From an uncultured virus (IMG/VR IMGVR_UViG_3300037455_001519) (Duplodnaviria; Heunggongvirae; Uroviricota; Caudoviricetes), in IMG/VR virus record IMGVR_UViG_3300037455_001519: a stretch of DNA of 64,000 nt; one strand, written 5' to 3'. Made by a program: the position numbers and the translations under genes. Shown here piece after piece: positions 20,829 through 60,454 of the stretch. Positions within the stretch are counted from its first letter, which is position 1, and each line of letters opens with the position of its first letter. A model generated the notes under the pieces. That model made no database searches and was not told the origin of the DNA. It saw only the letters and a program-made list of their open reading frames with translations.

Positions 20829-23800
20829 TTATCTATTTGACCAGTTAGCCCATCCGCTTGTACATCCAATATCCTTATATCTACTAAATCCCGAACCAGA
20901 AGTAGGTAAGTAGTTCCAAGCTCTATTAAATAAGTCTATAGCATCAGAGTAAGCAAGTCCGTCACACGCCAAATCGTTACCAACTGAACATTTTCCACTT
21001 ATAGGGAAGTTGCCAACTAATTTATTATATTGTGCTTGAGAATTGCTGCTTCCAGCACTACCAAAAGTTACTCTACAAGTATGTTGTGCCCAATTTGAAT
21101 AAACGTTAATATCGCTATTAGGCATAGCTCCACCAACATAACTTCTCCATCCAGTAAAATACCATTGTTCATTTCCTGGAGGGTTTCCTGGATTTGGTAC
21201 TGTATCTCCGGTTTTTACAGTACTAGATGTCCACCATCCGTCTCCTAAACCATAGTAATTAGCTGTATGATTATTACCTTGCCAATTAGCAGTATAGCTT
21301 CTGTTTCCTGTTGAACCTTTACTTACAGTAACACTTGTAGAATTACCAGAGATTCCTGTACCAGACCATCCTAAGAAAGTATATCCAGTTCTTGTTGGAT
21401 TTTTAAGAGTAAATGTATTAGTTTTCTTATTATATGTAGTTGGGTTACCAGATACAGAACCGCTATTTAATGTATATGATATATTAAATGTTGTTAAGGT
21501 AATAGTAAATTTTCTTTTTAAAGTTTGACTATTACCAGCGGCATCTGTGACAGTATATGTTACATAATAAGTACCACTATCTCCCCACGTAGGTGCTGTA
21601 TCATATTTCTTAGTAATTTTATCAGTTGCTGTATAATTATCTTTAATAGTTAATCCAGAATAGATATCATAAGTTGTTACAGTGTCAGCTATTGTAACGT
21701 CATTACCTGTTATAGTAGGTTTGGTTTTATCTAATTTATAAGGTCCGTAACACTGTTTGGTAGTTTCATTTGTACCATAAAGTATCTTAAAGCATATTTT
21801 ATTTCCAACATTTGTTTCGTCTGTCATATAAATTTTAGCAGAATCTTTAAAATCCGTTTTAACAATAGTTTTATTATCTGCAGAAGTATGTTCTACAGAT
21901 AATCTATCTTGAATAGTATTGACATTAGGTTCGCAATTTGAAGAATCTATACAATATGCTAACCCTGTTATTTGATTTTGAACAATAGTTGACGCTTTTA
22001 CATCAAATTCAATATTTTTATTTGCCCATCCAGCAGAATTAAGCTGAGAATTATCAACTGTAACACTTAATGATGGTACAATAACATTCATTGATAAAGA
22101 ATGAGTATCTGATTCTACTGTATAATGACCATTTTCTACGATTGAATAAAATGAGTATTCTCCACCACTTAAGTTAGTAAACCTACATTCTAAATATTTA
22201 TTATCTTTATCAACAGTAGCTTCTCCTTCATTTCGGAAGTCTCCTAAACTAATATAACATTTATAAATATGATTAGGATTTTCAATATCATATTTAGCAT
22301 ATATATTATTATTATCGTATAAATAACTTGCAGTGTAAATTGGTTTAGAAGGTTTTATATAATCAGTCTTAATTATATTAATGTCTGAATCTACATATTC
22401 GGTACCATTTCTAATTGTCATCCTTGTGTAATATGTAGTATTTTCTGCTAGATTATTATATTCACATCTTTTTTCACCATCTAAACTTTCAATTAAAGTT
22501 CCAGCAAAATCTAAATTATCTATATCAGTTCCATAAGAACATATATATCTAACATCAGATAAATTATTATCATTATCTTCATATATATCAATAATTGATT
22601 TTTCTGTTATTGTACTAGATGTTTTAATTGGTTTAACAGGTTTTTGATATTTTGTTTTAATTGTATAAATGTCACTATCACTTGATTTAGTGTCGTTAAA
22701 TACAATAGTTTTTAAATAATAATTATGTCCTTCTTCTAGATTAGTTGCTTTACAAGTAACTCCATCTGAGAATGTCTCTTTATCAATTTCAGTAACAATA
22801 TCAGTTGAATCATTACCTATATAACATTTAATATCTGTATAATTTTTTAAACCAGAAAAATGTGCTTCAATAGAATTTAAAGTAGTTTCATAATTATCTA
22901 ACACTACAGGTTCTGGTTGTTCATAATTTGTAATAATTTCTATAACATCACTTGATACTTTTTTATCATTATTTATAACATCTAATCTTATGTAATAATT
23001 TTTATTTTGAGTCAAATTATCTATATGACATTGAATTTTATTGTCACTTGCTATACTATTAACAAGATTGTCTTGAATATCTTTAGTTTCGCCGACATAA
23101 CACATATACGATGTAAAAATAGTATCTGTATTAAATTCTATATCTATAGTAGTATCTGTCATTTCATAAGTAGATAATGTTGGTTTTATTGGAGTATGAT
23201 TATCTGTTTTAAATGTCTTAACATCACTTTCAGACGATTTATCTCCATTATAAGCAATTACCTTATATGAATATTCAGTATTCTGAGTTAAATCATTAAA
23301 TACACAATATTGTTGTTGTCCAAGAGGAGTAATGACATTTCCTTTAATATAATCATTATTATCCAAACTATAGAAACATTCGTATTTTTGAGCATTATTT
23401 GAATCTTCCCAAGTAATAGTAACTGAATTTTCCTTTGTTAAACTAACAGTAGGAATAACTTTATCTGGAACTTCAAGATATTCTTCAACAGGTTCTTTAT
23501 TTTCAACATTATCAAGTATTTTAATTAAAGTTATTCTGGCATATCCATTTCCCTTTTTACCTATACTACTTTCTTTAGTAATAGGGTCTATAATCTGTGT
23601 AGAGCCACTTTCTATTTTTGGAGAAGTAAACTCGTAGCCAGAATAATGTATGTTGCCTGAAAAAACTAAATTATGTTCTGTGGCTGTATTGTGAAGGCTT
23701 ATGTTATCTTTATATCCAGAAACATAAGAACTACCTCCGGCTCCTGCGCCTTTAATACCAGTGCCTCCTCCACCAAAATATCCACTACCACCAGCATTTA

Positions 23801-25121
23801 CTGAGAAACCAAAGCCAGGTTTATTATTATTAGCTAAATATTCTGTTAATTGAGATGATTTAAAACCGTTTTTAATAGAAGAATTTATTCCAGGAACTTT
23901 TTGTTTTCCACCAATAGCGTTAATTATGCCAGTAAAATTACCAAAAGCATTTTGACCATTAGTTATACCACCGTTTCCACCATTAGCAGTAATACCAGTT
24001 CCACCTGCTCCTGCAACCATAATTCTAGTTTTTAATGAATTAAAAGAATTCCATTTTGTACCGTAATTTAAACGAACATCGGTGGCACCACCACCGGCAT
24101 ATTTATAATCTGTTTTTATTGTTCCATTAAAAGATTCTCCCTTATCATTTCCCTGTTCTCCAACACAAATATAAAGAAGTTGATTTTCAGGAAGATTTAT
24201 ATTACCTGATGTATATGCACCATTTCCACCTTGAAAAGAATTAAACGAACCACCAGATGCTCCCCACAATTCTATTTGATATTCTCCAGTATAAGGAGCA
24301 TACCATTCTTCACAATTTCCTGAATAATCGAAATCAACAATATATCTATCTATATCTAAAGTTTTATTGTTAATAGCTATTGTATTCTGATTTATTTCAT
24401 TTGAAGTTAATTCATTATTCCAAATAGCATAAGAAGATAATTTCATATTAATTTTGTCGCCAACAATTATTTTATTTGATATATTAATCATTCCTAAATT
24501 AGCAGATATAGAGTTATCTAATTGTCCGTTGACATACAATTTTAACAAGTCGTTATTATATACAACAGTAATAGAATGCCAAGTATCTGTAGTTAATAAT
24601 TGATTAGATTCTAATTCAATGTTATTTAAAATAACTTTAAGCACACCATTATTGTTTAAATATACTTTAAAATTAGCATTATTAATTAACATTGCTTGAG
24701 TATCTGGAAGTTGTAATAAATTAATATTTAATAATAAAGAAAATTTGTCATTATTAATATTTATTGCTGTTTCTAAATTATCATTAATACCATCAAATAA
24801 TAAAGAAGTTTCATTCCATCCAGAATTGTCATCAAAATCAAAATTATGCAACGAAGCATCATTTGTTTTATTTTGAGCATACCATATATCTTTATTTTCC
24901 GATTCATTATTTATATGTTGACCTAAAGAGCTATTACTAGAAGCGTCTAAACAAGTAACTAGGCCTTCTTTATAAAATGAATTACATAAAGTTTCTGAAT
25001 TGGCATTATTATATAAATTATTACTAGGTTTTCCAACGTTATTGTAAACCATAAAACCGATAGCAGTAAAAACAATTACTATTGCAGAAATCCAGAATAG
25101 TTTATTAGTATTTTGACTCAT
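20829..25121 (-). CDS. Giant surface protein/adhesin: N-terminal TM, LamG-like, Gly-rich (ALK/LTK-like), FN3-like repeats, Ig-like, Listeria-Bacteroides-type repeats
   Basis: WHSITVVY...LYVNGQLD (LamG); IELWGASGG/GGGATDVRL (Gly-rich); LxxNTxY FN3; NPTRTGYTFLGW repeat. Confidence 0.85.
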   Translation of the reverse strand: MSQNTNKLFWISAIVIVFTAIGFMVYNNVGKPSNNLYNNANSETLCNSFYKEGLVTCLDASSNSSLGQHINNESENKDIWYAQNKTNDASLHNFDFDDNSGWNETSLLFDGINDNLETAININNDKFSLLLNINLLQLPDTQAMLINNANFKVYLNNNGVLKVILNNIELESNQLLTTDTWHSITVVYNNDLLKLYVNGQLDNSISANLGMINISNKIIVGDKINMKLSSYAIWNNELTSNEINQNTIAINNKTLDIDRYIVDFDYSGNCEEWYAPYTGEYQIELWGASGGSFNSFQGGNGAYTSGNINLPENQLLYICVGEQGNDKGESFNGTIKTDYKYAGGGATDVRLNYGTKWNSFNSLKTRIMVAGAGGTGITANGGNGGITNGQNAFGNFTGIINAIGGKQKVPGINSSIKNGFKSSQLTEYLANNNKPGFGFSVNAGGSGYFGGGGTGIKGAGAGGSSYVSGYKDNISLHNTATEHNLVFSGNIHYSGYEFTSPKIESGSTQIIDPITKESSIGKKGNGYARITLIKILDNVENKEPVEEYLEVPDKVIPTVSLTKENSVTITWEDSNNAQKYECFYSLDNNDYIKGNVITPLGQQQYCVFNDLTQNTEYSYKVIAYNGDKSSESDVKTFKTDNHTPIKPTLSTYEMTDTTIDIEFNTDTIFTSYMCYVGETKDIQDNLVNSIASDNKIQCHIDNLTQNKNYYIRLDVINNDKKVSSDVIEIITNYEQPEPVVLDNYETTLNSIEAHFSGLKNYTDIKCYIGNDSTDIVTEIDKETFSDGVTCKATNLEEGHNYYLKTIVFNDTKSSDSDIYTIKTKYQKPVKPIKTSSTITEKSIIDIYEDNDNNLSDVRYICSYGTDIDNLDFAGTLIESLDGEKRCEYNNLAENTTYYTRMTIRNGTEYVDSDINIIKTDYIKPSKPIYTASYLYDNNNIYAKYDIENPNHIYKCYISLGDFRNEGEATVDKDNKYLECRFTNLSGGEYSFYSIVENGHYTVESDTHSLSMNVIVPSLSVTVDNSQLNSAGWANKNIEFDVKASTIVQNQITGLAYCIDSSNCEPNVNTIQDRLSVEHTSADNKTIVKTDFKDSAKIYMTDETNVGNKICFKILYGTNETTKQCYGPYKLDKTKPTITGNDVTIADTVTTYDIYSGLTIKDNYTATDKITKKYDTAPTWGDSGTYYVTYTVTDAAGNSQTLKRKFTITLTTFNISYTLNSGSVSGNPTTYNKKTNTFTLKNPTRTGYTFLGWSGTGISGNSTSVTVSKGSTGNRSYTANWQGNNHTANYYGLGDGWWTSSTVKTGDTVPNPGNPPGNEQWYFTGWRSYVGGAMPNSDINVYSNWAQHTCRVTFGSAGSSNSQAQYNKLVGNFPISGKCSVGNDLACDGLAYSDAIDLFNRAWNYLPTSGSGFSRYKDIGCTSGWANWSNR
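21715..21752. repeat. 38-bp perfect direct repeat, copy 1
   Basis: gtaggtttggttttatctaatttataaggtccgtaaca, identical to 26377-26414. Confidence 0.85.
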
Positions 25122-25232
25122 AAAATTACCTCCCTCAAAAGTTTTATATACATATTTATTATATGAAATATAATGCTTATCGATAATAAAAAAAAGGCCA
25201 AATTTAGCCTTTTTTAACGTTATTATGTATTA

Positions 25233-28200
25233 TTACCAGGTTACTGTAATATTTGCTTTACCAGAACTTAAACCTTGTTCATTGTAACCCAATAATAAGC
25301 CGTGGTTATTTTTAGCATAAACCCAAACTCTATATACGTGCCATTTAGATACAGTATTTACACCATTTAATGTCATTTGATATGCGTTTGGAACAGATAC
25401 TTCCCAAGTACCGGCAGATGAGTGATTTGTACCAACGCCATATTCTCCGTTTGGAGCACCACTCCACCATTCGCCATCTCTAGTAACTTCGATGTAAACT
25501 CCACCTGCATCATATGCATTATATCTATGCCAAGTACCAGTTACCCATTTATCTCCGGTTGTACCTTTGTTAATGCAAGATGTTCCAGACCAACCATCGA
25601 ATACATAACCTTGTCTAGAAGGAGTTCCTAAACAGAAATTATTTGATTCAATATTGAATGTAACACTTCCTTGAGAATAACCTTCTGATACGTGTAATGT
25701 GTAATTTATAACGCTCCAATTAGCTGTATAGCTTCTATTACCAGTAGAGCCTTTAGAAACTTTAACAGATGTAGATTTACCACTAATTCCAGTTCCAGAC
25801 CAACCAGTAAATGTATATCCATTTCTTGTTGGATTAGTTAACGTAAAGTCTGCTGTTTCAATATTATATGATGTTTTATTTGAAGCAGAACCTCCGTTCA
25901 TTGTGTAACTAATTGTATAATTTGTTGGTGTCCAGTTAGCTTTATATGAACGAGCTCCTTTAGAACCTTTTGATATAGTAACTGTTTTATTTGTATCTCC
26001 AGTTAAACCTGTACCAGACCAACCTTTAAAATCATAACCTGTTCTTGTTGGGTTGTTTAATGTAAAGGTATTAGTCTTTTTATTATATGTTGCTGGATTA
26101 GTCTTTCCACTTGGTAATGCGCCACTATTATAATTATATGTTATATTAAAATCAGTTAAAGTGATTATAAACTTTCTTGTAAATGTAGTTGCATTACCTG
26201 CTAAATCTGTAACAGTGTAATTAACTGTGTAAGTACCATCTGTTCCCCAAGTTGGAGCCTTATCGTATGTTTTAGTTAATTTATCGTTAGCAGTTAAATT
26301 ATCTGTAATAGTCATACCAGAATAAATATCATAAGTATCTACGTCGTCTCCAATAGTTTTATCACTACCTGTTACGGTAGGTTTGGTTTTATCTAATTTA
26401 TAAGGTCCGTAACATTGTGTAGTAGTAGCTTTATTTCCATACAATACTTGGAAACACATTTTAGAACTACTACTTTCATTAGTCATATATACATCGGTTT
26501 CATTTTCAAAATCAGATAATATCGTAGTTTTAGAATCCGTAGAAGTATATGTAACTCCAGACACATCTATTTCTGTAGAGAATTGAGGATTACAGTCTGA
26601 GCTATCTATACAATACGCTAAACCAGTTATTTGTCCTATAACAATAGTATTTGCTTTAACGTGAGCTTTAATATTTGATTTTGCCCAGCCATTACTATTG
26701 AATTGTGAATTATCAACAGTAACTGCTAATGTAGGAACAATGTCATCCATTACTATAGAATGGGTATCAGATTGTGTTTTATATGGACCATTTTCTGCTG
26801 TTGAATAGAATGTATATTCTCCTCCTGATAGATTATTAAATCTACATTCAATATTCTTTTCTTCTGCGTTTACAGTCGTTTCTCCTTGAACAGGATTTCC
26901 TTTATCAATAATATAACACTTGTAAGTATAATTAGGATTATCAATATTATATTTAGCATAAATATAGTTTGTGTCATATAAATATCCAGTTATATATTCA
27001 GGTTTAAGCGGTTCGGCAAAATCTGTTTTAATAACATTAATTTCTGAATCTACCGCTTCAGTACCATTTCTAACAGTCATTCTTGTATAGTAAGTGGTGT
27101 TTTCAGTTAAACCACTATATTCACATTGTTTTTCTCCAGTTAAGCTTTCAGTTACAACACCAGAGAAATTAATATCATCAATTGATGTACCATAAGTACA
27201 AATATATCTAGGGTCTGAAAGCTCACTATTAGTATCATTATAAGTATCTTTAATTGAATTCTTTGTACTAACACTATTTGTTAAAGTAGGTTTTTCAGGA
27301 GCTTGATATTTTGTCTTTATAGTAACAATATCACTTTCTGTAGACTTAGTATCATTAAATACTATAGTCTTTAAATAATAAGTTGTTCCTTCTTTTAATC
27401 CGTCAGCCTTACAAACAACGCTGTCAGAATAAATTTCTTTATTTATTTCATTAGTTACATCTGTTGATTGAGTACCTATATAACATTTAACATCTGTATA
27501 ATTTGTTAATGTTTTAAATGTAGCATCAATAGTATTTAATCCTGTTTCATTTTCTCCAGCACCAGAAGCTAGTGCTTCAGGAGTTTCATATTCAGTAACT
27601 AATTCAACAATATCACTTGAAGTTTTTTTGTCCCCATTAATTGTTTCTAATCTATAATAATAAGATTTGTTTTGAGTTAAATTATTTGATGTACAAGTAA
27701 CTATATCATTATTTATTGAAGTATTTATAACATCTTCTTGACTGTCAATTGTTTCACCACTATAACAAATATAATTAGTTGCAATAGGGTCTACTTTAAA
27801 TTCCATTACAATTTCAGTATCAGAAACATTGTTTGACATTATAATTGCTTTAGTTGGAGTGTGATATTGAGTTTTTAATGTCATAATATCACTTTCTGAA
27901 GTTTTATTACCATTTTTAGCAATTACTTTATAATAATGAGTTTTATTTTGTTCAAGTTCATTAAATATACATACTTGTTTTTGTCCAAGAACTGTTGTAA
28001 CAGTTCCTTTTTTATAATTAGTACCATCAGCACTTATATAACATTCATAACTTTGTACATTATCAATATCATCCCAAGTTATTTCAGCAAAATTTTCATC
28101 AATATATTTAACACTTGGATTTACCTTAGCAGGTACTTCAAAATCTTTTGAATTAGGTGTTTTATTTGGTACGCTATCTAAAGTTTTAATTAATGTAATT

Positions 28201-29789
28201 TTAGCATAACCGTTACCTTCTTTTCCATAAGTTTTAGAGCCTGTTGTTGGTTCTAAAATTTCAGTAGTTCCGCTTTCCATCTTTGGAGATGTAAATTCAT
28301 ATCCAGAATAATGTGCATCAGAAGTAAATACTAATTCATCTTCTGTTGATATAGCGTGTAATCCTATACTATCTTCGTGTCCTGAAATATATGATGAACC
28401 ACCAGCACCAGAACCGATACTACCAAATCCACCACCACCGAAGTATCCGTTTCCGCCTCCATTGTAAGCATATCCGAAACCTGATGTTTTATTATTATTA
28501 ACTAAATAATCTCTAAGTTCATTTTTATTAAAGCCAGCTTTGATTGAATTGTTATTTCCGGCATTTTTTTGTTTGCCTCCAGTTGCGTTTAAAATACCAA
28601 CGTAATTTCCTTTGGCGTTTTGGCCGCTTTCCATACCTCCAGCACCACCTTGTGCAGAAACAGCAGTTCCTCCACCAGCTGCTACCATAATACGAGATTT
28701 AAGCGAATCAAAATTAGCCCAATTATTATTATATTCAAGTCTTACGTCGGTAGCTCCACCACCAGCATATTGAGAGCCGCCTTGTAAAGTTCCGTTAAAA
28801 GATTTTCCAGAATTGTTACCTTGTTCACCAACGCAAATATATAAAGGTTGTCCTTCTTGTAATTCTATATTACCTGAAGTGAATGCTCCGGTACCACCTT
28901 TATTAGAATTATATGAGCCTCCTTGAGCACCCCATAGTTCTATTTGATATTCACCTTCATAAGGAACGTACCATTTAACGCAATCTCCGGTATAACCAAA
29001 AGTAACAACATATTTATCTATATCTAATATTTTATTATTTAATGCAATTGTATTTTGGTTTACTTCATTAGTATCTAATGCTTTATCCCATAATGCAAAA
29101 GACGAAACATACATATTAGCATTACCAATAGTTAAATTTTGAGAAATATTAATATTTCCTAAATGAGCAGGTATTTTTGAATCTAATTGCCCATTAATAT
29201 ATAGTTTTAATAAATCATTATCGTAAGAAACCATAATAGAATACCAAGAATCTTCTTCTAAAATAGTTTGAGATTCAATTTCTTTTGTTCCGTTACTAGC
29301 ATTTATATAAACTTTTACTTTTCCGTTAGGTTCTATATAAATTTTTATTCCATTATTACTTATAATTTCTTTTTGTGAATTAGGTAATGTAGGTAATTTT
29401 AAATTAATTAATAATGAAGCTTTGTCTTCAAAAGTTTTATTCACTTTTAAAGAAACGCTATCATCAATACCGTCAAATAATAAAGCAGTTGTATCCCAAC
29501 CAGATTGTTCATTATAATTAAAACCGTTTAATTTTCCTTCTAAATTAAATACTTGGTCAATCCATTTAGGATTATTTCCTGAATATTGTCCTTCAGAAGT
29601 ATTACTACTTGCATCTAAACAAGTAATTAAACCTTCTTTATAAAAAGAATTACATAGTGTTTCAGCATTTGCGTTGTTATATAAATTGTTGCTAGGGTGA
29701 CCGACATTGTTATAAACCATAAATCCTATAGCAACAAACACTATAACTATTGCTGAAATCCAAAATAATTTATTCGTGTTTTGACTCAT
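25233..29789 (-). CDS. Giant surface protein/adhesin, tandem paralog of 20829-25121
   Basis: Same N-terminus MSQNTNKLFWISAIVIVF and same domain order; more xxRxGYxFxGW repeats; different C-terminal tip. Confidence 0.85.
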   Translation of the reverse strand: MSQNTNKLFWISAIVIVFVAIGFMVYNNVGHPSNNLYNNANAETLCNSFYKEGLITCLDASSNTSEGQYSGNNPKWIDQVFNLEGKLNGFNYNEQSGWDTTALLFDGIDDSVSLKVNKTFEDKASLLINLKLPTLPNSQKEIISNNGIKIYIEPNGKVKVYINASNGTKEIESQTILEEDSWYSIMVSYDNDLLKLYINGQLDSKIPAHLGNINISQNLTIGNANMYVSSFALWDKALDTNEVNQNTIALNNKILDIDKYVVTFGYTGDCVKWYVPYEGEYQIELWGAQGGSYNSNKGGTGAFTSGNIELQEGQPLYICVGEQGNNSGKSFNGTLQGGSQYAGGGATDVRLEYNNNWANFDSLKSRIMVAAGGGTAVSAQGGAGGMESGQNAKGNYVGILNATGGKQKNAGNNNSIKAGFNKNELRDYLVNNNKTSGFGYAYNGGGNGYFGGGGFGSIGSGAGGSSYISGHEDSIGLHAISTEDELVFTSDAHYSGYEFTSPKMESGTTEILEPTTGSKTYGKEGNGYAKITLIKTLDSVPNKTPNSKDFEVPAKVNPSVKYIDENFAEITWDDIDNVQSYECYISADGTNYKKGTVTTVLGQKQVCIFNELEQNKTHYYKVIAKNGNKTSESDIMTLKTQYHTPTKAIIMSNNVSDTEIVMEFKVDPIATNYICYSGETIDSQEDVINTSINNDIVTCTSNNLTQNKSYYYRLETINGDKKTSSDIVELVTEYETPEALASGAGENETGLNTIDATFKTLTNYTDVKCYIGTQSTDVTNEINKEIYSDSVVCKADGLKEGTTYYLKTIVFNDTKSTESDIVTIKTKYQAPEKPTLTNSVSTKNSIKDTYNDTNSELSDPRYICTYGTSIDDINFSGVVTESLTGEKQCEYSGLTENTTYYTRMTVRNGTEAVDSEINVIKTDFAEPLKPEYITGYLYDTNYIYAKYNIDNPNYTYKCYIIDKGNPVQGETTVNAEEKNIECRFNNLSGGEYTFYSTAENGPYKTQSDTHSIVMDDIVPTLAVTVDNSQFNSNGWAKSNIKAHVKANTIVIGQITGLAYCIDSSDCNPQFSTEIDVSGVTYTSTDSKTTILSDFENETDVYMTNESSSSKMCFQVLYGNKATTTQCYGPYKLDKTKPTVTGSDKTIGDDVDTYDIYSGMTITDNLTANDKLTKTYDKAPTWGTDGTYTVNYTVTDLAGNATTFTRKFIITLTDFNITYNYNSGALPSGKTNPATYNKKTNTFTLNNPTRTGYDFKGWSGTGLTGDTNKTVTISKGSKGARSYKANWTPTNYTISYTMNGGSASNKTSYNIETADFTLTNPTRNGYTFTGWSGTGISGKSTSVKVSKGSTGNRSYTANWSVINYTLHVSEGYSQGSVTFNIESNNFCLGTPSRQGYVFDGWSGTSCINKGTTGDKWVTGTWHRYNAYDAGGVYIEVTRDGEWWSGAPNGEYGVGTNHSSAGTWEVSVPNAYQMTLNGVNTVSKWHVYRVWVYAKNNHGLLLGYNEQGLSSGKANITVTW
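26377..26414. repeat. 38-bp perfect direct repeat, copy 2
   Basis: Identical to 21715-21752. Confidence 0.85.
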
Positions 29790-29914
29790 TTTTATCACAT
29801 CCTCTTTAATAGTTTTAGGAAAATCAATCTTTTACTTATTTTATAAAAAAAATGAGTTATTTATTATAAAAAAGTAGGTATAAAAAAAGAGAAAACAAAT
29901 ATTGTTCTCTTTTT

Positions 29915-32930: not shown

Positions 32931-32943
32931 AATTTAAACCTCC

Positions 32944-36492: not shown

Positions 36493-36504
36493 GGAGATGT
36501 TAAT

Positions 36505-49552: not shown

Positions 49553-49558
49553 ACGTTT

Positions 49559-49984: not shown

Positions 49985-50083
49985 ATAAATATCCTCCTTC
50001 AATAAGAAATCTTTATGCTTTATTATATATAAGATATCAAAGTAATAAAAAAGAAAATTGTCAAATAAAAAGATAAAAGTTTT

Positions 50084-50989: not shown

Positions 50990-51068
50990 ACTACAACTTC
51001 CTTTCTAAATATTAAAGTTATTATATTATATAACAAATAAAAAGAAATAAGAAAAAATAAAAAGGACT

Positions 51069-51488
51069 CTATTTAATAGAGTCCATAATAGATTGTCTTT
51101 CAGTATTTTTTAATTCAGTATCAATAAGTTTTTCAATATCTTCGTTCATACCTTCTGAATAACCAGAAAAATATTTATTACCAATAACGGTAAATGGAAC
51201 GCCGTTAATTTGAACTCCAGTTTTAGAAGAAAGTTCATTTATTTTAGCTTGATTATTATTATTTTCCCAAACTTCATAATCAATTATATTTATCTTATTC
51301 TTATATTTACCATTTTTTAAACCTTTTAAATAATTCATTTCTGCTGCACAATGAGGACAACCTTCTCCTCTAAAGATATAAATATTTATAGGTTCAATTT
51401 TAGGGTTGTGAGAATTGTAATAAGTTACACCACTAAAAATTAAAAAAATACTTAAAATAACTAAAATTATAATTTTCTTTTTATCCAT
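51069..51488 (-). CDS. Membrane-anchored thioredoxin-fold thiol-disulfide oxidoreductase
   Basis: N-terminal TM; CPHC active site; GVPF cis-Pro loop. Confidence 0.85.
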   Translation of the reverse strand: MDKKKIIILVILSIFLIFSGVTYYNSHNPKIEPINIYIFRGEGCPHCAAEMNYLKGLKNGKYKNKINIIDYEVWENNNNQAKINELSSKTGVQINGVPFTVIGNKYFSGYSEGMNEDIEKLIDTELKNTERQSIMDSIK

Positions 51489-51492
51489 ATTT

Positions 51493-52383: not shown

Positions 52384-52388
52384 ACACA

Positions 52389-52829
52389 TTACCATCCTAA
52401 CGCCCAATATATTTTCATTAAAAGTTTATGCGATTTATCAAATTCTTTTTTAATAATAAAATAATCTTCTATATCTAAAGTATCATAATCTCTATTTAAA
52501 AATTCCAGAGCTTTTTCTTCGGTTGCAGCATATAATTTATAACCGTAAATAATTTTATCTAAAGTTTTTAGCCATTTTTTATGGCCCTTATTTCCTTCAT
52601 CTGCGCCCCCATCTGATAAAAACATTCCAGGTGTAACTCTATCAGCAATATATTCTCTAAAATAACATAAACGAGAATAGATTTCCATTGCCATTGTTAC
52701 ATCCAAATCATAAAACTCAGCAGGTACAAAATTATTTTCATCAGGATAATAATTTTTATCTTCTTTTTTAAAAGGAAATGTTTCTTCGGAATAACCGATT
52801 TCTTTTAAATATTTGTTTAGTGTTAACAT
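52389..52829 (-). CDS. Hypothetical protein (phage-like)
   Basis: GAGGTG RBS; EFYDLD...WLKTLDKII..., ends YWALGW. Confidence 0.7.
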   Translation of the reverse strand: MLTLNKYLKEIGYSEETFPFKKEDKNYYPDENNFVPAEFYDLDVTMAMEIYSRLCYFREYIADRVTPGMFLSDGGADEGNKGHKKWLKTLDKIIYGYKLYAATEEKALEFLNRDYDTLDIEDYFIIKKEFDKSHKLLMKIYWALGW

Positions 52830-52964
52830 ATTGTGTCACCTCACAATATTATTATAATATATTTTATTAATATTTACAAGTCTTTTCAGAACTAGAACAT
52901 TTTAACGTTTTTAGAAAATATAACAATATATATAATATAAGTATGAGAAGGAGGTTAGATAAAA

Positions 52965-53375
52965 ATGTCTACAAACACAAATAATTTATGGTATGTTATT
53001 ATTGGAGCATTAATCGTTCTTGCTATTTTTTTAGGAATAAATGCTCACGTCAATGATTCTGTTAATAGCGTATTCGAGCCTTCTAAAGAGACTATAGAAA
53101 TTAACAATTTTGATAAAAATGAAATTAAAGCAGAATGTTTTGTATTTACAAATTTTAAGACAGAAAATGGAGTGTTAACAGCTAACATAGAAAATAAATG
53201 TTATAACGATAAAACATATACATTCGAATTTACAATTTTTAAAAACAAAGAAGAAAGTGTAAAATTACCAAATTTAACAATAGCCATAACTGGTGAAAAT
53301 AAAATAGAAAATAAAGTATTAGGCTCTATACAAGGCATAGAAAGCATTTATGACCTAAAAATAAAAAGCATATAA
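52965..53375 (+). CDS. Pilin-like membrane-anchored protein
   Basis: MSTNTNNLWYVIIGALIVLAIF leader, then a small beta domain with a Cys pair. Confidence 0.65.
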   Translation: MSTNTNNLWYVIIGALIVLAIFLGINAHVNDSVNSVFEPSKETIEINNFDKNEIKAECFVFTNFKTENGVLTANIENKCYNDKTYTFEFTIFKNKEESVKLPNLTIAITGENKIENKVLGSIQGIESIYDLKIKSI

Positions 53376-53389
53376 ATATATGCTTTTTT

Positions 53390-54019
53390 TTATTTTCTTT
53401 CTTTTTTAGATTTTGATTCTAAGATTTCATCAGCTAAACCTTCTTTAACTGCTTGTTCGGCATTAATCCAGCAATCTGAATATTTTTTATCTTTATATTT
53501 ATTAATTACTTCTTCGCTACTAGCTTCTGCCATTAATTTAAATACTAAATCATTTAAATATTTAGATTCAGCTACTTCTTCTTCCATACTAGCTAATTTA
53601 CCTTGTGTTCCAGAAGATACACTATGAATCATTAATCTAGAATTTCTGCCAATTACGCGCTTACCAGTTGCTCTAATAAATAATATAGCCGCACAAGAAG
53701 CTGCCATACCATAACAGATAACATTTACCTTTGATTTTAAAGATTCCATTGTATCTATAATTCCTAATAAAGCATAAGCTTCTCCACCTGGAGAATTAAT
53801 AATCATTGTGATATCTTTTTCTTCAATTGCATCAAGATAAACTAATTGAGAGTGAATTAATTCAAACATTTGTTGATTAAATTCACCTGTAACATAAATT
53901 ATTCTGTCTTTTAAAACTCTTGAAAAAACATCATATGTAAATCTACCTTTATCGTTTTCTTCATTAATACTAGGAACTACACTTAATCCAGTAGTTTTAT
54001 TAAATAATTCTTGTTTCAT
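53390..54019 (-). CDS. clpP: ATP-dependent Clp protease proteolytic subunit, divergent
   Basis: YDVFSRVLKDRII, INSPGG, GMAASCAA (Ser), MIHS (His), DCWINAEQAVKEGLAD (Asp). Confidence 0.92.
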   Translation of the reverse strand: MKQELFNKTTGLSVVPSINEENDKGRFTYDVFSRVLKDRIIYVTGEFNQQMFELIHSQLVYLDAIEEKDITMIINSPGGEAYALLGIIDTMESLKSKVNVICYGMAASCAAILFIRATGKRVIGRNSRLMIHSVSSGTQGKLASMEEEVAESKYLNDLVFKLMAEASSEEVINKYKDKKYSDCWINAEQAVKEGLADEILESKSKKERK

Positions 54020-54042
54020 TTATAATCTCTCCTTATTACTTA

Positions 54043-54177
54043 TTATTTTAAAAATCCTATAATTCCCATTGCAAGATATATAATTGCAAGTAAAAATATA
54101 ACGCCGCCAATTATATAAAATAACAAATTAGAATTTTTAGTATTTTTATCTAAGCTATTTTTTAAATTTTTAAACAT
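54043..54177 (-). CDS. 44-aa single-TM microprotein MFKNLKNSLDKNTKNSNLLFYIIGGVIFLLAIIYLAMGIIGFLK
   Basis: GAGGAGG RBS; directly upstream of clpP; not in ORF track. Confidence 0.7.
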   Translation of the reverse strand: MFKNLKNSLDKNTKNSNLLFYIIGGVIFLLAIIYLAMGIIGFLK

Positions 54178-54284
54178 AAATAGAACCTCCTCTACTTGAT
54201 ATGTATATTATATCATAATTAACAAAAAAAGTCAATAAAACTATTTTTTTCTAATATAATAAAATAAATGAAGGAGGTATAAAT

Positions 54285-54401
54285 ATGGACAATCTTGTTG
54301 TGTTAATAATCATATCATTTTTAATGATTGGTTCTATAGTATACTTAAAATCAAAAGAAAAATCTGATAAAAAAGATACAAAGAAAAAAGACTCAGAATA
54401 A
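54285..54401 (+). CDS. 38-aa single-TM microprotein MDNLVVLIIISFLMIGSIVYLKSKEKSDKKDTKKKDSE
   Basis: TATAAT and AAGGAGGT upstream; terminator hairpin over the stop. Confidence 0.7.
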   Translation: MDNLVVLIIISFLMIGSIVYLKSKEKSDKKDTKKKDSE

Positions 54402-54410
54402 GAGTCTTTT

Positions 54411-56342
54411 TTAATTTTCTTCATTTTCATCATCAAATAGAGAATCAATATCAAAGAATGCTTTATCTTGATTTTTATCATCTGAACTATTTTCCTTTTC
54501 TTCTTCAACAGAAATGATATCTTCAGAAGTAGTATCTGTTTCAAAATCGTCATAAGCATAATCAGGTATAAAATCAGGATAATAATTATTGTATTGTTCT
54601 TCTTCGGCATCAGCAAGTTTTTCTAGAGAATTATCAAATTCATCATCTATAGTTTTAATTTTTGGTTCTTCATATTTACGTTCTATATTAATAATCATAT
54701 CTTCATCATCATTATCTGAAATGTAATTTTCATCTACTGTCTCTTCAGATATATTTTGATTATCATCTTCTGTGCTATAATCTATTACTTCATTTTCAGT
54801 ATTTATAACATCAGGAGTACTCACAACAGAATTATTAATATTTTCAATAATGTCTGTAAAATCATTATTTTCTTCAGCATCTATATCTGAATCATCCTCT
54901 ATATCCGTACTAGCTTCTTCAACTATATTAATAATGTCATTTTCACTTTCTTCTTCAGGTTGTTCTACATTTTCTTCAGAAACATTTTCATTTTCTAATA
55001 CATCATCTTCAATTTTATTTACATCATTTGTTTCTGTAAAAATTGATTCTACAACATTGTTTAAATTTTCAGCAGCATTTACTTCATTTGATAATTGATT
55101 TTTCTTTTTCTTCTTTTTCTTTTTTTTCTTTTTACTTTGAGTTTCTAAAGCTTCAGGATTAATATCAACAAGATTATTAATATCAAAACTTTCTGTTTCG
55201 TTTCTATATAAAGTAGGAATATCATCAATATTGTCTAATATAGCATCTACAATATTATCAGATGCAACAGGAAGTTCTTCTTGATTAATAGGGTTAAAAG
55301 TAGATTTTGCGCTATTATTAGATAAACTTTGATTAATATTATAAACTCTATTATTAAAATCTTCATTACTTATTTTAAAAGGAATATTATTATCAGGAAC
55401 GATTGTTTTCTTTTTTAACTTTTTACCAATATTAATAATAGATATTCTTTCTTCTTCGTCATCTAACCCATTATTATAAAAAGCACATTTTCCACATTTT
55501 TTAATACCCTTATCTACAGTCATATAAAAAATGGTATTAGGAGTACGTAATGAAAGTTCTCTAAATAATTGAATCTTATATAAATTAAAATCATCAACTG
55601 TTGTAATAGGTTTAAAATAAGAAAATTTATCAACAAAATATGTTATATCATTAAATACTAAACCAGATAAAAGAATGTAGTTTTTGACACAACTTTCTAA
55701 TAAATATTTAGCATCATAATCAAGTTCAGTAAACGAATTTAAAAATAATGTTGTTGATAAGTCATAGTTTTCATTATACTTAAGTAAATCTCCAATTTCT
55801 GTAATATAGTTATCTGCATCGTCTACATATAAATAATGTGGTCTTTTTAATGTAACTTCAGTATTTTGAATATCTATATATAAATGATGTAATATTTTTT
55901 TAAGCATTCTTCTACTTTTGTCTTTATATTTTTCTTCTTCTAAATCGATTATAATAATAGACTTATTTCTTATTTCTTGTTTATAATCAATTAGTTTAGT
56001 CATTTCATCATAATCATAAGGTTTATCTTCTAAAAGCATTTTATAAGTAGTAATATCAGCACTAGGTTTAATTACTTTTAATTGTGTTTTTCTTTTTAAT
56101 CTATTAGCAAGAGACATTAAAAAATAAGCTTCTTCTTTATCATTAACTATAAAAGTACATCCAACAAAATTACCACCATTTTGAATTTGTTGTTTAGCAA
56201 ATGCTGGAATAATTTTTGTAGTTTTTCCTGAATTTTTAGTTCCTATAACAGCTAAATTTAATAAACGACTTTTTTCAGAAATTTCAACAGTTTCTTCTTT
56301 GTCTATACCAATGATTAAATTTTGAATAGATTTATTATTCAT
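54411..56342 (-). CDS. Degenerate VirD4/TraG-like P-loop protein with long acidic low-complexity tail
   Basis: NLAVIGTKNSGKT Walker A; HYLYVDDAD Walker B; poly-Lys tract; D/E-rich C-terminal half. Confidence 0.6.
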   Translation of the reverse strand: MNNKSIQNLIIGIDKEETVEISEKSRLLNLAVIGTKNSGKTTKIIPAFAKQQIQNGGNFVGCTFIVNDKEEAYFLMSLANRLKRKTQLKVIKPSADITTYKMLLEDKPYDYDEMTKLIDYKQEIRNKSIIIIDLEEEKYKDKSRRMLKKILHHLYIDIQNTEVTLKRPHYLYVDDADNYITEIGDLLKYNENYDLSTTLFLNSFTELDYDAKYLLESCVKNYILLSGLVFNDITYFVDKFSYFKPITTVDDFNLYKIQLFRELSLRTPNTIFYMTVDKGIKKCGKCAFYNNGLDDEEERISIINIGKKLKKKTIVPDNNIPFKISNEDFNNRVYNINQSLSNNSAKSTFNPINQEELPVASDNIVDAILDNIDDIPTLYRNETESFDINNLVDINPEALETQSKKKKKKKKKKKNQLSNEVNAAENLNNVVESIFTETNDVNKIEDDVLENENVSEENVEQPEEESENDIINIVEEASTDIEDDSDIDAEENNDFTDIIENINNSVVSTPDVINTENEVIDYSTEDDNQNISEETVDENYISDNDDEDMIINIERKYEEPKIKTIDDEFDNSLEKLADAEEEQYNNYYPDFIPDYAYDDFETDTTSEDIISVEEEKENSSDDKNQDKAFFDIDSLFDDENEEN

Positions 56343-56469
56343 AATAATTATCCCTCCTCAAGATATATATATTATACTTTCTTTTATTTTAATAAAAACC
56401 TTTTTAATGTTTCAACTTTTTTTAAAATATAATAATATATCTAATAAGAATTAGATAAAGGAGTAAAAT

Positions 56470-57090
56470 ATGAAAAAACAAAAAACAAGACTAAGATTAA
56501 AAAGAAATGTAAAGGTTACATTACTTTCAATATTAGTCACTTCTATTATGGCAGGAGGTATTGTAGGTATTAAATCATTACAAACTCCACCAACAACAGT
56601 TGTTGACGCTGCTAAAGCAGAAATAACTGAAATAAAAATAGAAGAAATTGAAACTACTGAACCTACTACAGTAGCTGCACCTGTTGTAGCGCCAGTTGAA
56701 GCTGAGGGAACGAAGAAAGTTGAAGAAAAAACAGCAGTAGAAAATAATTCTATGCAATATAGAATGACTTTCTATGCTACTGATGACGGTTATGGAACTG
56801 GTTCTGTAACTGCTTCAGGAAAATCTACTAAAGATTTTCAAATCAATGAAAATGGATGGTATACATACCAAGGAAAACTTGTAGTTGCAACAGCATCAAC
56901 AAGACTTGGTAAAACCAATCAAAAAACATACAAACTTTACGATGAGTTAGAAATAACTATTAAAGGTAAAAAATACGATGCTATCGTATTAGATGCTTGC
57001 GGAGCTTGTATGAAGGGTAAAAAAATTGATTTATTTGTTAGTTCAACAAAATATGGCTATGACGGCCAAGTTACTGTAGTAAAGAAGTAG
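56470..57090 (+). CDS. Membrane-anchored 3D-domain (lytic transglycosylase-like) protein
   Basis: MTFY...TASG, VLDACGAC, KIDLF. Confidence 0.7.
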   Translation: MKKQKTRLRLKRNVKVTLLSILVTSIMAGGIVGIKSLQTPPTTVVDAAKAEITEIKIEEIETTEPTTVAAPVVAPVEAEGTKKVEEKTAVENNSMQYRMTFYATDDGYGTGSVTASGKSTKDFQINENGWYTYQGKLVVATASTRLGKTNQKTYKLYDELEITIKGKKYDAIVLDACGACMKGKKIDLFVSSTKYGYDGQVTVVKK

Positions 57091-57094
57091 TAAG

Positions 57095-57124
57095 GGAAGA
57101 CCAATTAAATGGTCTTTTTCTTTT
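57095..57124 (+). terminator. Intrinsic terminator
   Basis: AAGACCA-attaaa-TGGTCTT plus U tract. Confidence 0.7.
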
Positions 57125-57134
57125 GGTTTTAACC

Positions 57135-57163
57135 TTGAAAAAAGATTAAAAAAATGTTATAAT
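57135..57163 (+). promoter_or_regulatory. sigma-A promoter
   Basis: TTGAAA-17bp-TATAAT with extended TG. Confidence 0.7.
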
Positions 57164-57250
57164 AATAATCAGAAATAAAGAAAGAGATATGAAAAATATA
57201 AAATATATTAATTGATAATAATCAATTAGTTTAAGAAAGGAGATATAAAA

Positions 57251-59671
57251 ATGAAAATTGTTGTGCAAATAAGATTTAATACTTATTACAAACAAAAATT
57301 TGGAATCTATAAAGCTTTCTTATATGATAACAACGGGTATTGTATCGAATCTCAATATTCTTTAAAAGGAAAAACAATTTATCCTTTATTAGAAGGAAGA
57401 TGTTATGAACTTGAAGGAAACGAAGAATATGATAGTAAATATGGTAGAACATTTAATTTTAAAACTGCATTTGAAATTTTCCCAGTTAATAAAAAACAAA
57501 TGTCATATTTAGAAATATCTGAGATTAGAAGAAGCTACAATCGCTTTTTTACTAGTAATATAACAACAAGTGTTATTCAAAAAGAGTTAAGAGAGAGAAT
57601 TGATGAAGAAGATAAAGTAAGACAATTATTAAATTACAATATCAATTTCTTAGATGCTCAAAAACTAGTAGATAACGATGAAGATATTTTAGACAAAATA
57701 AAACAAGACCCGTATATACTATTAGATATTGCAAAAAACTTTGATTTCTTAAAATGTGATAAAATTGCATCAAAATGTAATTTAAATCCAAACGATTCTT
57801 ATCGAGTTAGAACAGGAATTAGAGAAACTTTAAAAGACATTTGTAATAGAACAGGTAATAGTTTTGTTGTTATTGATGAATTTTTTATTAAACTTGTAAA
57901 TGAAAATCTTAAATATTATTTAATACCTGAAGACATAAAAGAAATTATGTCGATATATAATCAAGATAAAAATAATAAATTAATTGATTTTAATGTATTT
58001 CATTTCTTTTATAATACAGTATTTATTCCTGAATTAGAAGAATGCATTCAAAACAATGAAAAGTATTTATTTTTTGAAACAGATTATGATAATATTTTAA
58101 ATGAATTAACAAAATCAGATAAGAAATTTACAGTATATCAAGATAAAATTTATTTAACAGAATTATATGAGGCAGAAGAATTAATTGCTAATAAAATAGT
58201 TGCGTTAAATAAAAATAAATCAGATAAAAATGATAAAAAAGAATTAAAACAACATATTCATATGTACGAAAGTAAAAATTCTATTACGCTTAATAAAAAG
58301 CAAAATGAAGCAATTAACCAAATTCTTGAATTTAAAAATGGTGGTGTATATATATTAACTGGTAAAGCAGGCACAGGCAAAACAACTGTTGTCGACGCAA
58401 TAGTTAATATAAATAATTCACTTAATAAACATTCATTAGTGGCTTTAGCAGCTCCAACAGGAAAAGCTGTAAAAGTAATAAAAGAATCCTTAACTACCTA
58501 TGCACCTGTTAATACTATTCACAGAATGCTAGGATATAATGGAGAAGAATTCCTTTATAATGAAAAAGCACCATTAAATGAAAGTTTTATTATTGTTGAT
58601 GAAACTTCAATGCTAGATTTAGAAATGGCTTCAAATCTTTTAAGAGCTATTAGAGACGACAGTAAAGTTTTATTTTTAGGAGACCCAAATCAATTACCTA
58701 GTATTGGTCCAGGTAAATTCTTAAAAGATATCATAGAATGTCTTCCGGACAATATTATTGAATTGACTGAAATATGTAGACAAAAAAATGGGTCAGGAAT
58801 TATAGAAAATAGTTCCAATATTTTAAATGAAGATATGATACAAACTTCTCAAACTAAAGATAATTATGTATTTTGGGGAAATAATGTAGATTTTTTTACA
58901 AAGAGATTATTTCAATCCATAGATTATTTAAAAAATAAATGTGGATTATCTAATGACGAAATAGAAATATTAACGCCAATGAGAATTGGACCATTAGGAA
59001 CATATCAATTAAATAAAATATTACAACAAAAATTTAATCCTCAAGGATATTCATTAATGGATATAGAAGAATATACCGATATTAAATCTTTCACTCCTAA
59101 CAAATTCAAAATAGGAGACAAAGTAATTAATATTAAAAATAATTATCAAATTTATAAATACGATAGACCTATTAACAGCGTAAACATAGATAGTTACATT
59201 GTTTATTGTACAAATATTATTATGAATGAAAATAATGTAAATAGATTAGACGGTAAAATAAAAGCTATAGGTGTTGCTAATGGAGAGTCTGGATATATTA
59301 CAGACATCTTTAGCACAGAAATTCCTATATTCGATTCTAAAGGAAGATTTAGAGGAAGAAAGAAAGCTGATTGTATTACCGTTGAGTTTGATGACGGATA
59401 TATATGTTTCGTTGATTCCACTGATTTACGTTTAGGTTATGCTGTAAGTGTACATAAAAGCCAAGGTAGTGGATGGAAAGGTGTAATTAGTATAGTTGGC
59501 CCTGGTCATCAAAAAATGGCTTGTAATGAATTAATATATGTTACAAATACACGTGCAAGAGAGCAAAATATTTATATTGGTAGTGAAGATATTTATAAAG
59601 AAGGTATTCACGTTCATTTAAATGATAGATTAACTACTTTAGTAAAAAGATTCCAACAAAAAAACAAATAG
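57251..59671 (+). CDS. recD2: Second RecD2-like SF1B helicase
   Basis: GKAGTGKT, APTGKAV, VDETSM, GDPNQLPSIG, YAVSVHKSQGS, YVTNTRAR. Confidence 0.9.
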   Translation: MKIVVQIRFNTYYKQKFGIYKAFLYDNNGYCIESQYSLKGKTIYPLLEGRCYELEGNEEYDSKYGRTFNFKTAFEIFPVNKKQMSYLEISEIRRSYNRFFTSNITTSVIQKELRERIDEEDKVRQLLNYNINFLDAQKLVDNDEDILDKIKQDPYILLDIAKNFDFLKCDKIASKCNLNPNDSYRVRTGIRETLKDICNRTGNSFVVIDEFFIKLVNENLKYYLIPEDIKEIMSIYNQDKNNKLIDFNVFHFFYNTVFIPELEECIQNNEKYLFFETDYDNILNELTKSDKKFTVYQDKIYLTELYEAEELIANKIVALNKNKSDKNDKKELKQHIHMYESKNSITLNKKQNEAINQILEFKNGGVYILTGKAGTGKTTVVDAIVNINNSLNKHSLVALAAPTGKAVKVIKESLTTYAPVNTIHRMLGYNGEEFLYNEKAPLNESFIIVDETSMLDLEMASNLLRAIRDDSKVLFLGDPNQLPSIGPGKFLKDIIECLPDNIIELTEICRQKNGSGIIENSSNILNEDMIQTSQTKDNYVFWGNNVDFFTKRLFQSIDYLKNKCGLSNDEIEILTPMRIGPLGTYQLNKILQQKFNPQGYSLMDIEEYTDIKSFTPNKFKIGDKVINIKNNYQIYKYDRPINSVNIDSYIVYCTNIIMNENNVNRLDGKIKAIGVANGESGYITDIFSTEIPIFDSKGRFRGRKKADCITVEFDDGYICFVDSTDLRLGYAVSVHKSQGSGWKGVISIVGPGHQKMACNELIYVTNTRAREQNIYIGSEDIYKEGIHVHLNDRLTTLVKRFQQKNK

Positions 59672-59672
59672 A

Positions 59673-59909
59673 TTATTTTTCTATTTGTTTTTTATTTTTC
59701 TTGATTTTAATAGCAGGGAATTTTAGTTTATCAAGTGAAATATCTGATTCATAAGGAACTGGATTATCTGTCTTTTTAGCTGCTAAATCCATATAAACAG
59801 TTGCAGTTTTAGAAAGAGTATCTACGCTTATAACTTTAACCATTATATTACTTTCTGCATATTCATCATAGAAAACCATCCACATACCTGGTTTAATTTT
59901 TTTGTCCAT
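59673..59909 (-). CDS. Small hypothetical protein (SH3/KOW-like beta pattern)
   Basis: AGGAGG RBS before ATG 59909. Confidence 0.65.
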   Translation of the reverse strand: MDKKIKPGMWMVFYDEYAESNIMVKVISVDTLSKTATVYMDLAAKKTDNPVPYESDISLDKLKFPAIKIKKNKKQIEK

Positions 59910-60140
59910 AAAATGTAAGCCTCCTAATTCTATATAAAAAGTAGCAACCACACTTTAACTTTTTTATAAAAGTTAGCTATTTCTTAATATTTTATAAACA
60001 CACAATAAATATTTCTTATATTTATTAATACAATTATAACACCTTTTGTAAAAAATGTCAATAAGATGTTAAAAAATGTAAAGTGTTAATAATAAAAAAT
60101 ATTGTTATTTTTATAAAAAAAATAAATATAATATGTATAT

Positions 60141-60252
60141 GATTAATAGAGGGTCGCGTCCTTTATTAATTCGTGTTCGAACACACAAAATCTTTAAATA
60201 GAACCCCTCATCTATTTAAAGGTGGAAAAGAAGGATTTATCCTTCTTTTTTT
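60141..60252 (+). ncRNA. Putative structured small RNA (~112 nt)
   Basis: TATAAT at 60127-60132; three consecutive hairpins and a terminator; no RBS-led ORF. Confidence 0.6.
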
Positions 60253-60313
60253 GTGCATATTAAAATAAAAAAAATATAAAATATATTATAAAAACATTGG
60301 GAGGTAAATGCTT

Positions 60314-60454
60314 ATGGATGATAATACAAACACTATTTTTATGATAATAGTAGGAGTTATTATTTTATGTTTGATTGTAATATTATTTAGAGATAATATT
60401 GGAGATTTAATTTCTGGAGCATTGGGTTCTCCTAATACTTATCAAACGCATTAA
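60314..60454 (+). CDS. 46-aa pilin-like microprotein MDDNTNTIFMIIVGVIILCLIVILFRDNIGDLISGALGSPNTYQTH
   Basis: GGGAGGT RBS, own terminator at about 60453-60484; hydrophobic helix then amphipathic helix, as in Flp-sized pilins. Confidence 0.7.
   Translation: MDDNTNTIFMIIVGVIILCLIVILFRDNIGDLISGALGSPNTYQTH

Follow-up and report, generated by a model that had tools for sequence, protein, structure and literature searches.

Do five dispersed proteins that begin with one kind of N-terminal helix form part of a pilin-like surface system, even though no canonical prepilin leader precedes that helix? The question is raised by a 64,000-nucleotide stretch of DNA (referred to below as the window) filed in IMG/VR as the uncultured virus record IMGVR_UViG_3300037455_001519. 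An earlier note, made from the letters of this sequence, had proposed a novel appendage built from two giant adhesins (1430 and 1518 residues) and from proteins of 136, 46 and 44 residues (Table 1). By gene content and order the window itself is placed in a family of giant Bacillota plasmids, that of pSC2, pJFP838A and BTB_502p, at 22-46% identity, of which it is a divergent member. Profiles link the helix reciprocally to small leaderless proteins, exemplified by gene 41, of the conjugative plasmid pLS20 and its relatives. That all five proteins belong, as subunits or as cargo, to a Tad-like filament that serves mating or adhesion and needs no peptidase is a reading that we regard as evenly balanced; its parts differ in strength and are taken up in turn.

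Table 1. Features of the window discussed in the text
Feature	Coordinates	Strand	Basis or character
MoxR-type AAA, vWA and DnaE genes	12529..20800	+	Mark the window as belonging to the pSC2/pJFP838A/BTB_502p plasmid family
1430-residue paralogue of the 1518-residue protein	20829..25121	-	Codon comparison, profile scores
1518-residue surface protein	25233..29789	-	NTN helix, LamG, ALK/LTK glycine-rich domain, FN3-like repeats, Listeria-Bacteroides repeats (Pfam/NCBIfam)
136-residue protein, candidate minor subunit	52965..53375	+	Leaderless pilin-like helix, flexible linker, beta-sandwich head
44-residue protein, candidate minor subunit or regulator	54043..54177	-	11-residue extension, then NSN and hydrophobic helix
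TraG-like P-loop protein	54411..56342	-	Plasmid-family marker, tblastn
46-residue leaderless Flp-like protein, candidate main subunit	60314..60454	+	Homologues, Pfam Flp1_like, two pilin profiles
AT-rich hairpin and T run, probable terminator	60454..60484	+	Visible in the sequence after the 46-residue gene

A shared N-terminal helix in a single register

The coordinates, N-termini and ribosome-binding sites of the five open reading frames (ORFs) are all as the earlier note gave them, and the canonical prepilin site is indeed missing: none of the five has a G/A-xxxx-E/D site within its first 25 residues. Two of its other descriptions needed adjustment. The five genes sharing the leader are there, but they represent only four independent lineages, the adhesins being paralogues that are counted once. 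A basic n-region is not lacking throughout, in that the adhesins carry one Lys (K7) and the 44-residue protein has several ahead of its helix.

Four of the 55 window proteins (both adhesins and the 136- and 46-residue proteins) have N[TS]N at residues 4-6, compared with 19 of 19,423 positions (0.1%) overall. In the 44-residue protein the motif is at residues 15-17, after the Lys-containing extension. Scored in pairs, the four lineages take ranks 1, 2, 3, 4, 7 and 10 of 153, all at the NTN offset, with pairs involving the 44-residue protein at ranks 1, 2 and 4. An exact 3-mer common to three N-termini at one position arises in 2.1-2.4% of shuffles of the 18 independent transmembrane (TM) N-termini; the figure falls to 0.14-0.16% with Lys-containing 3-mers excluded, a restriction that was chosen after seeing the data. 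Across 748,895 bases in 68 other loci, the sole ORF with NTN plus helix looked spurious. The motif exceeds chance, and it is kept in the homologues of the 46-residue protein, the adhesins and the 136-residue protein.

A reciprocal link to pLS20-type plasmids

In pLS20, a TadA-annotated ATPase (gene 37) is followed by two membrane proteins, a 120-residue protein and then small genes. Three tandem gene-41 ORFs of 47-48 residues, starting M-L-D-Q-N-A-D-R, are present (L089 13016-13504); two of the three copies are unannotated in the record and two are identical in protein. A further operon protein, of 99 residues, starts M-G-D-N-T-N-K. Relatives of the ATPase occur on 280 plasmid records, and seven of these loci were fetched for comparison with that of pLS20. 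Leaderless hydrophobic genes of 45-60 residues lie beside the cassette in seven of the eight loci, the Lactococcus locus having none; the type of start in these proteins is M-L-D-Q-N-T.

A profile of the window leaders was compared with 76 N-termini, alternative starts included; its top 10 are 10 pLS20-type small genes, followed by a gap from 9.9 to 4.2 bits. The reverse profile was made from 15 leaderless genes taken by position and size from seven plasmids, with no window sequence and with one identical pLS20 copy omitted; five of these genes are outside the top 10 of the first profile. It ranks the five proteins 1-5 of the 55 window proteins, at 21.9 bits for the 46-residue protein, 11.9 for the 136-residue, 9.6 for the 44-residue, 4.1 for the 1430-residue and 3.6 for the 1518-residue protein, with the next at 2.0. 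All five align with their own N4 on N5 of the profile, a position held by Asn in 11 of the 15 plasmid small proteins. As background, 243 TM N-termini yield one score of at least 8 bits (a canonical TadE-like pilin), 16 of at least 4 and 23 of at least 3. The two sets thus match in both directions; in the reverse test the 46-residue protein scores strongly, the 136- and 44-residue proteins clearly, and the adhesins at background. These matches argue convincingly for homology of the helix to pLS20-type proteins in the three smaller proteins, and suggestively in the adhesins. For the proposition that all five carry an uncleaved pilin-type helix of the form M-x-x-N-[TS]-N-x-hydrophobic, as in pLS20 gene 41 and its relatives, we hold the scales about level.

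The relatives of gene 41 on pLS20, pLGUG1, pBMB71 and related Gram-positive conjugative plasmids are, like the window set, leaderless, at about 47 residues. In both, an invariant Asn precedes Thr or Ala, after which come two polar positions and then a hydrophobic helix that often has Gly, and neither has a prepilin peptidase nearby. Peptidase_A24 was found in none of six pLS20-type plasmids tested, and two copies are present in each of the two megaplasmids of the window's family that were tested. The window proteins start one residue shorter. Furthermore, the helix in the window is also carried by the 136-residue protein and by two proteins of 1.4-1.5 thousand residues, unlike the pLS20 adhesin (gene 34), which does not start with the motif.

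Gene 41 has no match in Pfam, and genes 38 and 39 have no T2SSF match; the labels TadB and TadC for these two rest on position, size and topology. In the sections of the pLS20 family paper drawn on here, gene 37 is a putative VirB11 and the word Tad does not appear (PMC8557374). DUF5411 loci are present in six of 401 Bacilli genomes; in the five inspected, a small gene of the NTN type was absent from the surrounding 1.5 kb or so.

The 46-residue protein resembles Flp pilins

Five homologues of the 46-residue protein (four at the 78-89% level and one at 51%) all keep N4-T5-N6. Against Pfam Flp1_like the protein scores 19.6 bits, under the cut-off of 33.5, and a canonical Flp from the plasmid family reaches just 16.7. 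A profile of the mature parts of the family Flps gives it 16.1 bits, the next window protein having 4.0, and it shares with those Flps its size, its helix and an F-R-D-x-I motif behind the helix. No leader can be encoded upstream, because a stop codon directly precedes the alternative start (60308). Size and helix fit the earlier description of this protein as Flp-sized, but the class III signal peptide, Glu5 and Tyr6 of such pilins are missing. On these comparisons it is very probably a leaderless pilin homologue. Its gene has its own ribosome-binding site, as previously described, and a claimed terminator that is visible as a hairpin but was not called by a terminator scan (0 predictions), the hairpin being too AT-rich. 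As an apparently monocistronic unit with both elements, it would be the best candidate for the main subunit.

A tblastn search of plasmids with this protein alone returned nothing, and the pLS20 link therefore requires profiles. Its profile, run over 401 Bacillota genomes, gave 20 matches at E <=0.05, a chance number, with no pilin-like gene. RNA contigs from four runs cover parts of 52-61 kb, and among the pieces listed none lies over the 46-residue gene.

Just upstream of the gene, a 115-nucleotide stretch (60140-60255, + strand; z -6.1) contains three or four hairpins and a U-tailed terminator. It matches no Rfam family at the gathering score and may be an undescribed small RNA or regulatory leader. 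On the other side, 600 bases from the 46-residue gene, lies a gene for an HD-GYP-type cyclic di-GMP phosphodiesterase (61061-61894, + strand). HD proteins are present in the family plasmids too, and a role of this one in regulation of attachment is possible.

The 136- and 44-residue proteins

The structure model of the 136-residue protein has a helix at residues 6-32 that a linker, modelled with low confidence, joins to a beta-sandwich, with a predicted local distance difference test score (pLDDT) of 70. In comparison with its homologue P0018, 33 of residues 1-34 are identical, versus 61 of the remaining 102. The best structure match is SadB (Z 8.4); archaeal pilins follow at Z 4.5-5.2, a common level, and fold searches named no family. 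The modelled outline resembles archaeal pilins, with a head that appears to be a generic beta-sandwich. The 44-residue protein is called as a gene in three source collections. Both are likely to be leaderless pilin homologues, judging from their profile scores and register.

Other candidates were set aside. In pJFP838A and BTB_502p, TadE-like genes lie close to the TraG-like gene; they are not orthologues of the 136-residue protein, with no blastp match to it. A 38-residue single-helix protein with a Lys-rich tail (54285-54401, + strand), convergent with the TraG-like gene, scored 0.7 bits on the pLS20-type profile and was left out of the set. In outline we take it to resemble type I toxins.

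The two giant adhesins

Selection on the adhesin leader can be followed in two ways. Between the paralogues, codons 1-30 differ by 15 synonymous changes versus one non-synonymous change. Four homologues (P0007, P0009, P0010 and P0011) keep 9-10 of the first 10 residues, and residues 66-250, the LamG region, are just 43-64% identical in the same proteins. In the two most distant homologues, 9 of the 20 helix residues (11-30) are identical. Leader conservation at such a level is unusual for ordinary signal peptides, and the leader is, by these comparisons, under strong purifying selection. The adhesin homologue P0007 and P0018, the homologue of the 136-residue protein, have an identical entry for longest contig (203,092 bases), a sign that the two may travel together on a related element; P0011 is on a contig of 144 kb.

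In an ungapped comparison with the family Flps, the best alignment of the adhesins puts their residue 2 on position +1, with W-I-S in common; the 1430-residue protein scores 35.9, top among the window N-termini tested, and the 1518-residue protein 31.5. Given their LamG, ALK/LTK glycine-rich, FN3 and Listeria-Bacteroides domains, the N-terminus would stay inside the cell or in the membrane. Modelling of the first 130 residues gave a structure of unusable quality (pLDDT 42.6). Searches with the first 560 residues found no match in 301 Bacilli genomes at E 1e-8, and the glycine-rich domain occurs in four of 301 Bacillota genomes, none with an NTN start, one gene being cut by the locus edge. That the adhesin helix is the same module as that of the other three proteins is slightly favoured.

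Another FN3-repeat surface protein, truncated by the window edge (1-1611, - strand), has repeats related to those of the adhesins; it starts with an ordinary Lys-rich N-terminus, and the NTN helix is absent. A sortase gene adjoins an Ig-repeat protein with an LPXTG-like anchor (3148-4735, + strand), a second surface-display route on the element.

The plasmid family and its Tad loci

The window comes from a contig of 71,195 bases. Two runs, both cattle gut metagenomes, contain at least half of the sequence words sampled from it and may be its source. The window has 26% G+C, is tRNA-free and encodes a replication and repair set of its own, with DnaE, primase, gyrase B, topoisomerase, NAD ligase and two RecD2 helicases. 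Other genes specify ClpP, thymidylate kinase, a sortase and many surface proteins. Its vWA protein finds 12 plasmid records, of which 11 are from Bacillota (127-722 kb, two of them being one plasmid) and one is a weak Pseudomonas match. The gene order around vWA is common to C. difficile BI1, pJFP838A, BTB_502p and a Paenibacillus plasmid, with a shared core of exonuclease, RuvC, primase, AAA, vWA and DnaE, together with an S1 protein and its neighbour, TraG-like, RecD2 and topoisomerase genes. In total, 14 of the 55 window proteins match fetched loci of this family. A tblastn search with the TraG-like protein finds five plasmid records, all of the family, at 34-37% identity. Scans of viral contigs turned up no relative, a metagenome scan gave a single match, by chance, within an unrelated gene, and a genome scan gave 11 loci at 24-32% identity with no close one.

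All 11 Bacillota records carry a CpaF ATPase, and the CpaF of C. difficile BI1 finds exactly the 11 records that the window vWA matches (E <1e-40). The Tad locus was viewed in nine of the 11 records and in a 739-kb Bacillus contig. It comprises an ATPase, CpaB, a second ATPase and CpaF, together with a pair of membrane proteins, Flp and a pair of TadE/TadG-like genes; an A24 peptidase is usually present as well. In pJFP838A and BTB_502p the TadE-like gene near the TraG-like gene is tens to hundreds of kilobases from this locus. The family Flps, which belong to the same element family as the window proteins, have a leader, Gly at -1 and usually Glu5, with an A24 peptidase in most loci viewed; all of these features are absent from the window proteins.

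The Tad locus of the pSC2, pJFP838A, BTB_502p and C. difficile BI1 plasmids (L002, L042, L047-L054) is itself highly conserved. It adjoins a replication-relaxation gene, a sigma factor and often ClpX, and all 11 plasmids are typed 'non-mobilizable'. A second Tad-like locus or second A24 peptidase appears to be present in family plasmids (L044 12809-19257; W02 85380; W03 80027).

Among described systems, Tad/Flp (type IVc) pili, such as those of Caulobacter (PilA) and Aggregatibacter (Flp1/TadV), likewise have a head-less helical subunit of about 45 residues, and a TadA-type ATPase occurs in relatives. The class III signal peptide ending in Gly or Ala, Glu5 and Tyr6, given for Tad/Flp pilins in the relevant passages of PMC10191384, PMC10710030 and PMC3244431, are missing from the window proteins, in which the positions equivalent to Glu5 and Tyr6 are Asn or Thr in either register. 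The window proteins are not members of the Flp/Tad pilins, yet they probably work like them. Tad-like Gram-positive loci without any prepilin-signal protein were reported by Imam et al. 2011 (PMC3244431). These 'no Flp' loci likewise have no prepilin signal, and those named include tadV; the passages concerned propose no leaderless subunits.

Proposed mechanism and alternative explanations

A canonical prepilin leader ends in Gly or Ala and is cut, leaving no cytoplasmic part, according to the account of processing in PMC10191384. The proteins studied here would be inserted into the membrane as signal-anchors that leave hardly anything on the cytoplasmic side, resembling processed pilins. Made in this form from the start, they would need no prepilin peptidase. 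A TadA/CpaF ATPase, working with a pair of membrane platform proteins and specified like them by another part of the element, would extract and polymerise the subunits, with the 46-residue protein as main and the 136- and 44-residue proteins as minor subunits. The 1.4-1.5 thousand-residue proteins would dock on the fibre or machine as adhesins through the same helix, most likely for contact between mating cells or attachment to surfaces. Glu5 may be dispensable, given that it faces the surface in the Caulobacter Tad pilus, in place of the usual N-terminal salt bridge, and is not conserved in archaeal pilins, as described in the structural sections of PMC10710030. Removal of the initiator Met, which the usual rule predicts for Met-Ser starts, was considered as a stand-in for leader cleavage; it fits the three Met-Ser proteins and not the Met-Asp and Met-Leu ones, and was dropped as a general mechanism. 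Of the separate parts of this scheme, a TadA/CpaF machine is probably present on this element, and formation of a real filament is somewhat favoured.

A number of observations weigh against this scheme. The earlier note had looked to assembly machinery on the element, and the 64-kb window holds no gene for TadA, TadB, TadC, CpaB or a peptidase; the products of pLS20 genes 36-40 have no match there at E 0.01, nor do those of the family cassette. The five genes are dispersed, whereas the pLS20-type small genes adjoin their ATPase. The 46-residue protein has no positive charge ahead of its helix and an Arg behind it, which fits an N-in topology poorly. The extracted family Flps are canonical, with leader and Gly at -1 in 11 of 11 and Glu5 in 10 of 11. 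Of five metagenome-assembled genomes (MAGs) with vWA relatives, one has a family-type CpaF, one has distant ones and three have none; these are incomplete assemblies, and the CpaF-negative ones include one with a 214-kb element contig. The megaplasmid CpaF is only about 26% identical to pLS20 TadA and falls in a separate clade, and comparison of the gene-38 family with the megaplasmid TadB-like family over 203 columns gives a probability of 3.8% (E 0.011). Genes 38-41 are listed as unknown (gene 41 as 'Unknown') in the gene descriptions of the pLS20 family paper (PMC8557374). For the adhesins, both reverse-profile scores are at background level and the homologue P0010 scores -0.7 on the pLS20-type profile. 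Their ungapped scores of 31.5-35.9 compare with 28.7 for the unrelated window protein 46088, and three control proteins also reach p near 0.01 in that test, for which the shuffle control is lenient.

Other readings were weighed as well. The proteins may have the same ancestry and form no extended fibre, acting as subunits of a short pseudopilus spanning membrane or cell wall, or as accessory subunits of a conjugation channel, that move or hold the adhesins in the manner of type II secretion system endopili. The pLS20-type genes do lie within conjugation operons beside VirB2-like and VirD4-like genes, Gram-positive elements are said in the pLS20 family paper's passage on pili to form no conjugative pili (PMC8557374), and the polar N-terminus and missing Glu5 are unlike the solved pilus cores covered in PMC10710030. 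Nevertheless, the three tandem small-gene copies of pLS20 suit an abundant polymer subunit, and the surface-facing Glu5 of the Caulobacter pilus makes no salt bridge; we consider this reading unlikely. If instead the element had no machine of its own, the proteins could be loaded on a leaderless Tad-like system of the host chromosome, or be pilin mimics that block the pili of the host or of rival plasmids. The dispersal of the genes, far from any ATPase, and the three MAG relatives of five that have no family-type CpaF would suit such an arrangement, which the CpaF present in all 11 complete family records speaks against; dispersed pilin genes also coexist with an own Tad machine in pJFP838A and BTB_502p, as the TadE-like gene near the TraG-like gene illustrates. 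This reading is rather improbable.

The set may also be of mixed origin, with the 46-residue protein a pilin homologue and the adhesins, perhaps with the 136-residue protein, ordinary single-pass anchored proteins whose Asn-rich N-termini converged in an AT-rich genome. Convergence would account for the background-level adhesin scores and the generic head whose best match is SadB, and the chance figure for any 3-mer is about 2%. It is harder to reconcile with the exact register in six of six lineage pairs, with adhesin homologues that keep residues 1-10 almost intact despite the divergence of their LamG region, and with the dearth of credible NTN-plus-helix ORFs elsewhere, and is in our judgement improbable. 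A last reading, very improbable, makes the 46- and 44-residue proteins toxins of the small membrane type, holins or exclusion peptides, with the 46-residue gene controlled by the structured RNA upstream. Their size and single helix, the position of that RNA (z -6.1) and a weak holin match (E 0.04) are compatible with such a role, but the RNA is on the same strand, is closed by a separate terminator and stops short of the gene, and far stronger matches come from the profiles of both pilin sets.

Novelty and implications

A literature search, which took in few subscription papers and no supplements, found no paper on leaderless Tad-like pilins, on the Tad locus of pSC2, pJFP838A and BTB_502p, or on pLS20 gene 41 as a pilin; nor did it find one naming two of these family plasmids, or one of them with Tad. 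This window adds three things: profiles that connect its leaders with pLS20 gene 41 in both directions, genes scattered over a giant plasmid although its relatives rely on canonical Flps, and adhesins of 1.4-1.5 thousand residues that carry the same helix. Tentatively, and with more doubt than confidence, we suggest a peptidase-independent class of type IV filament common to pLS20-type plasmids and giant gut plasmids, in which the subunits would be translated ready-mature and the same 25-residue helix would serve as a portable display tag for loading 150-kDa adhesins. The question is directly testable in B. subtilis with pLS20.

In the passages cited from PMC10191384, the definition of how type IV filaments are assembled takes in cleavage of the leader by prepilin peptidase. 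If the helices described here are pilins, they would be exceptions both to that definition and to the no-pili statement of PMC8557374, and a whole class would have been missed by leader-based pilin predictors. The system, if real, would also provide a new display route for very large adhesins on Gram-positive cells, and would account for the attachment or mating of an undescribed giant rumen plasmid.

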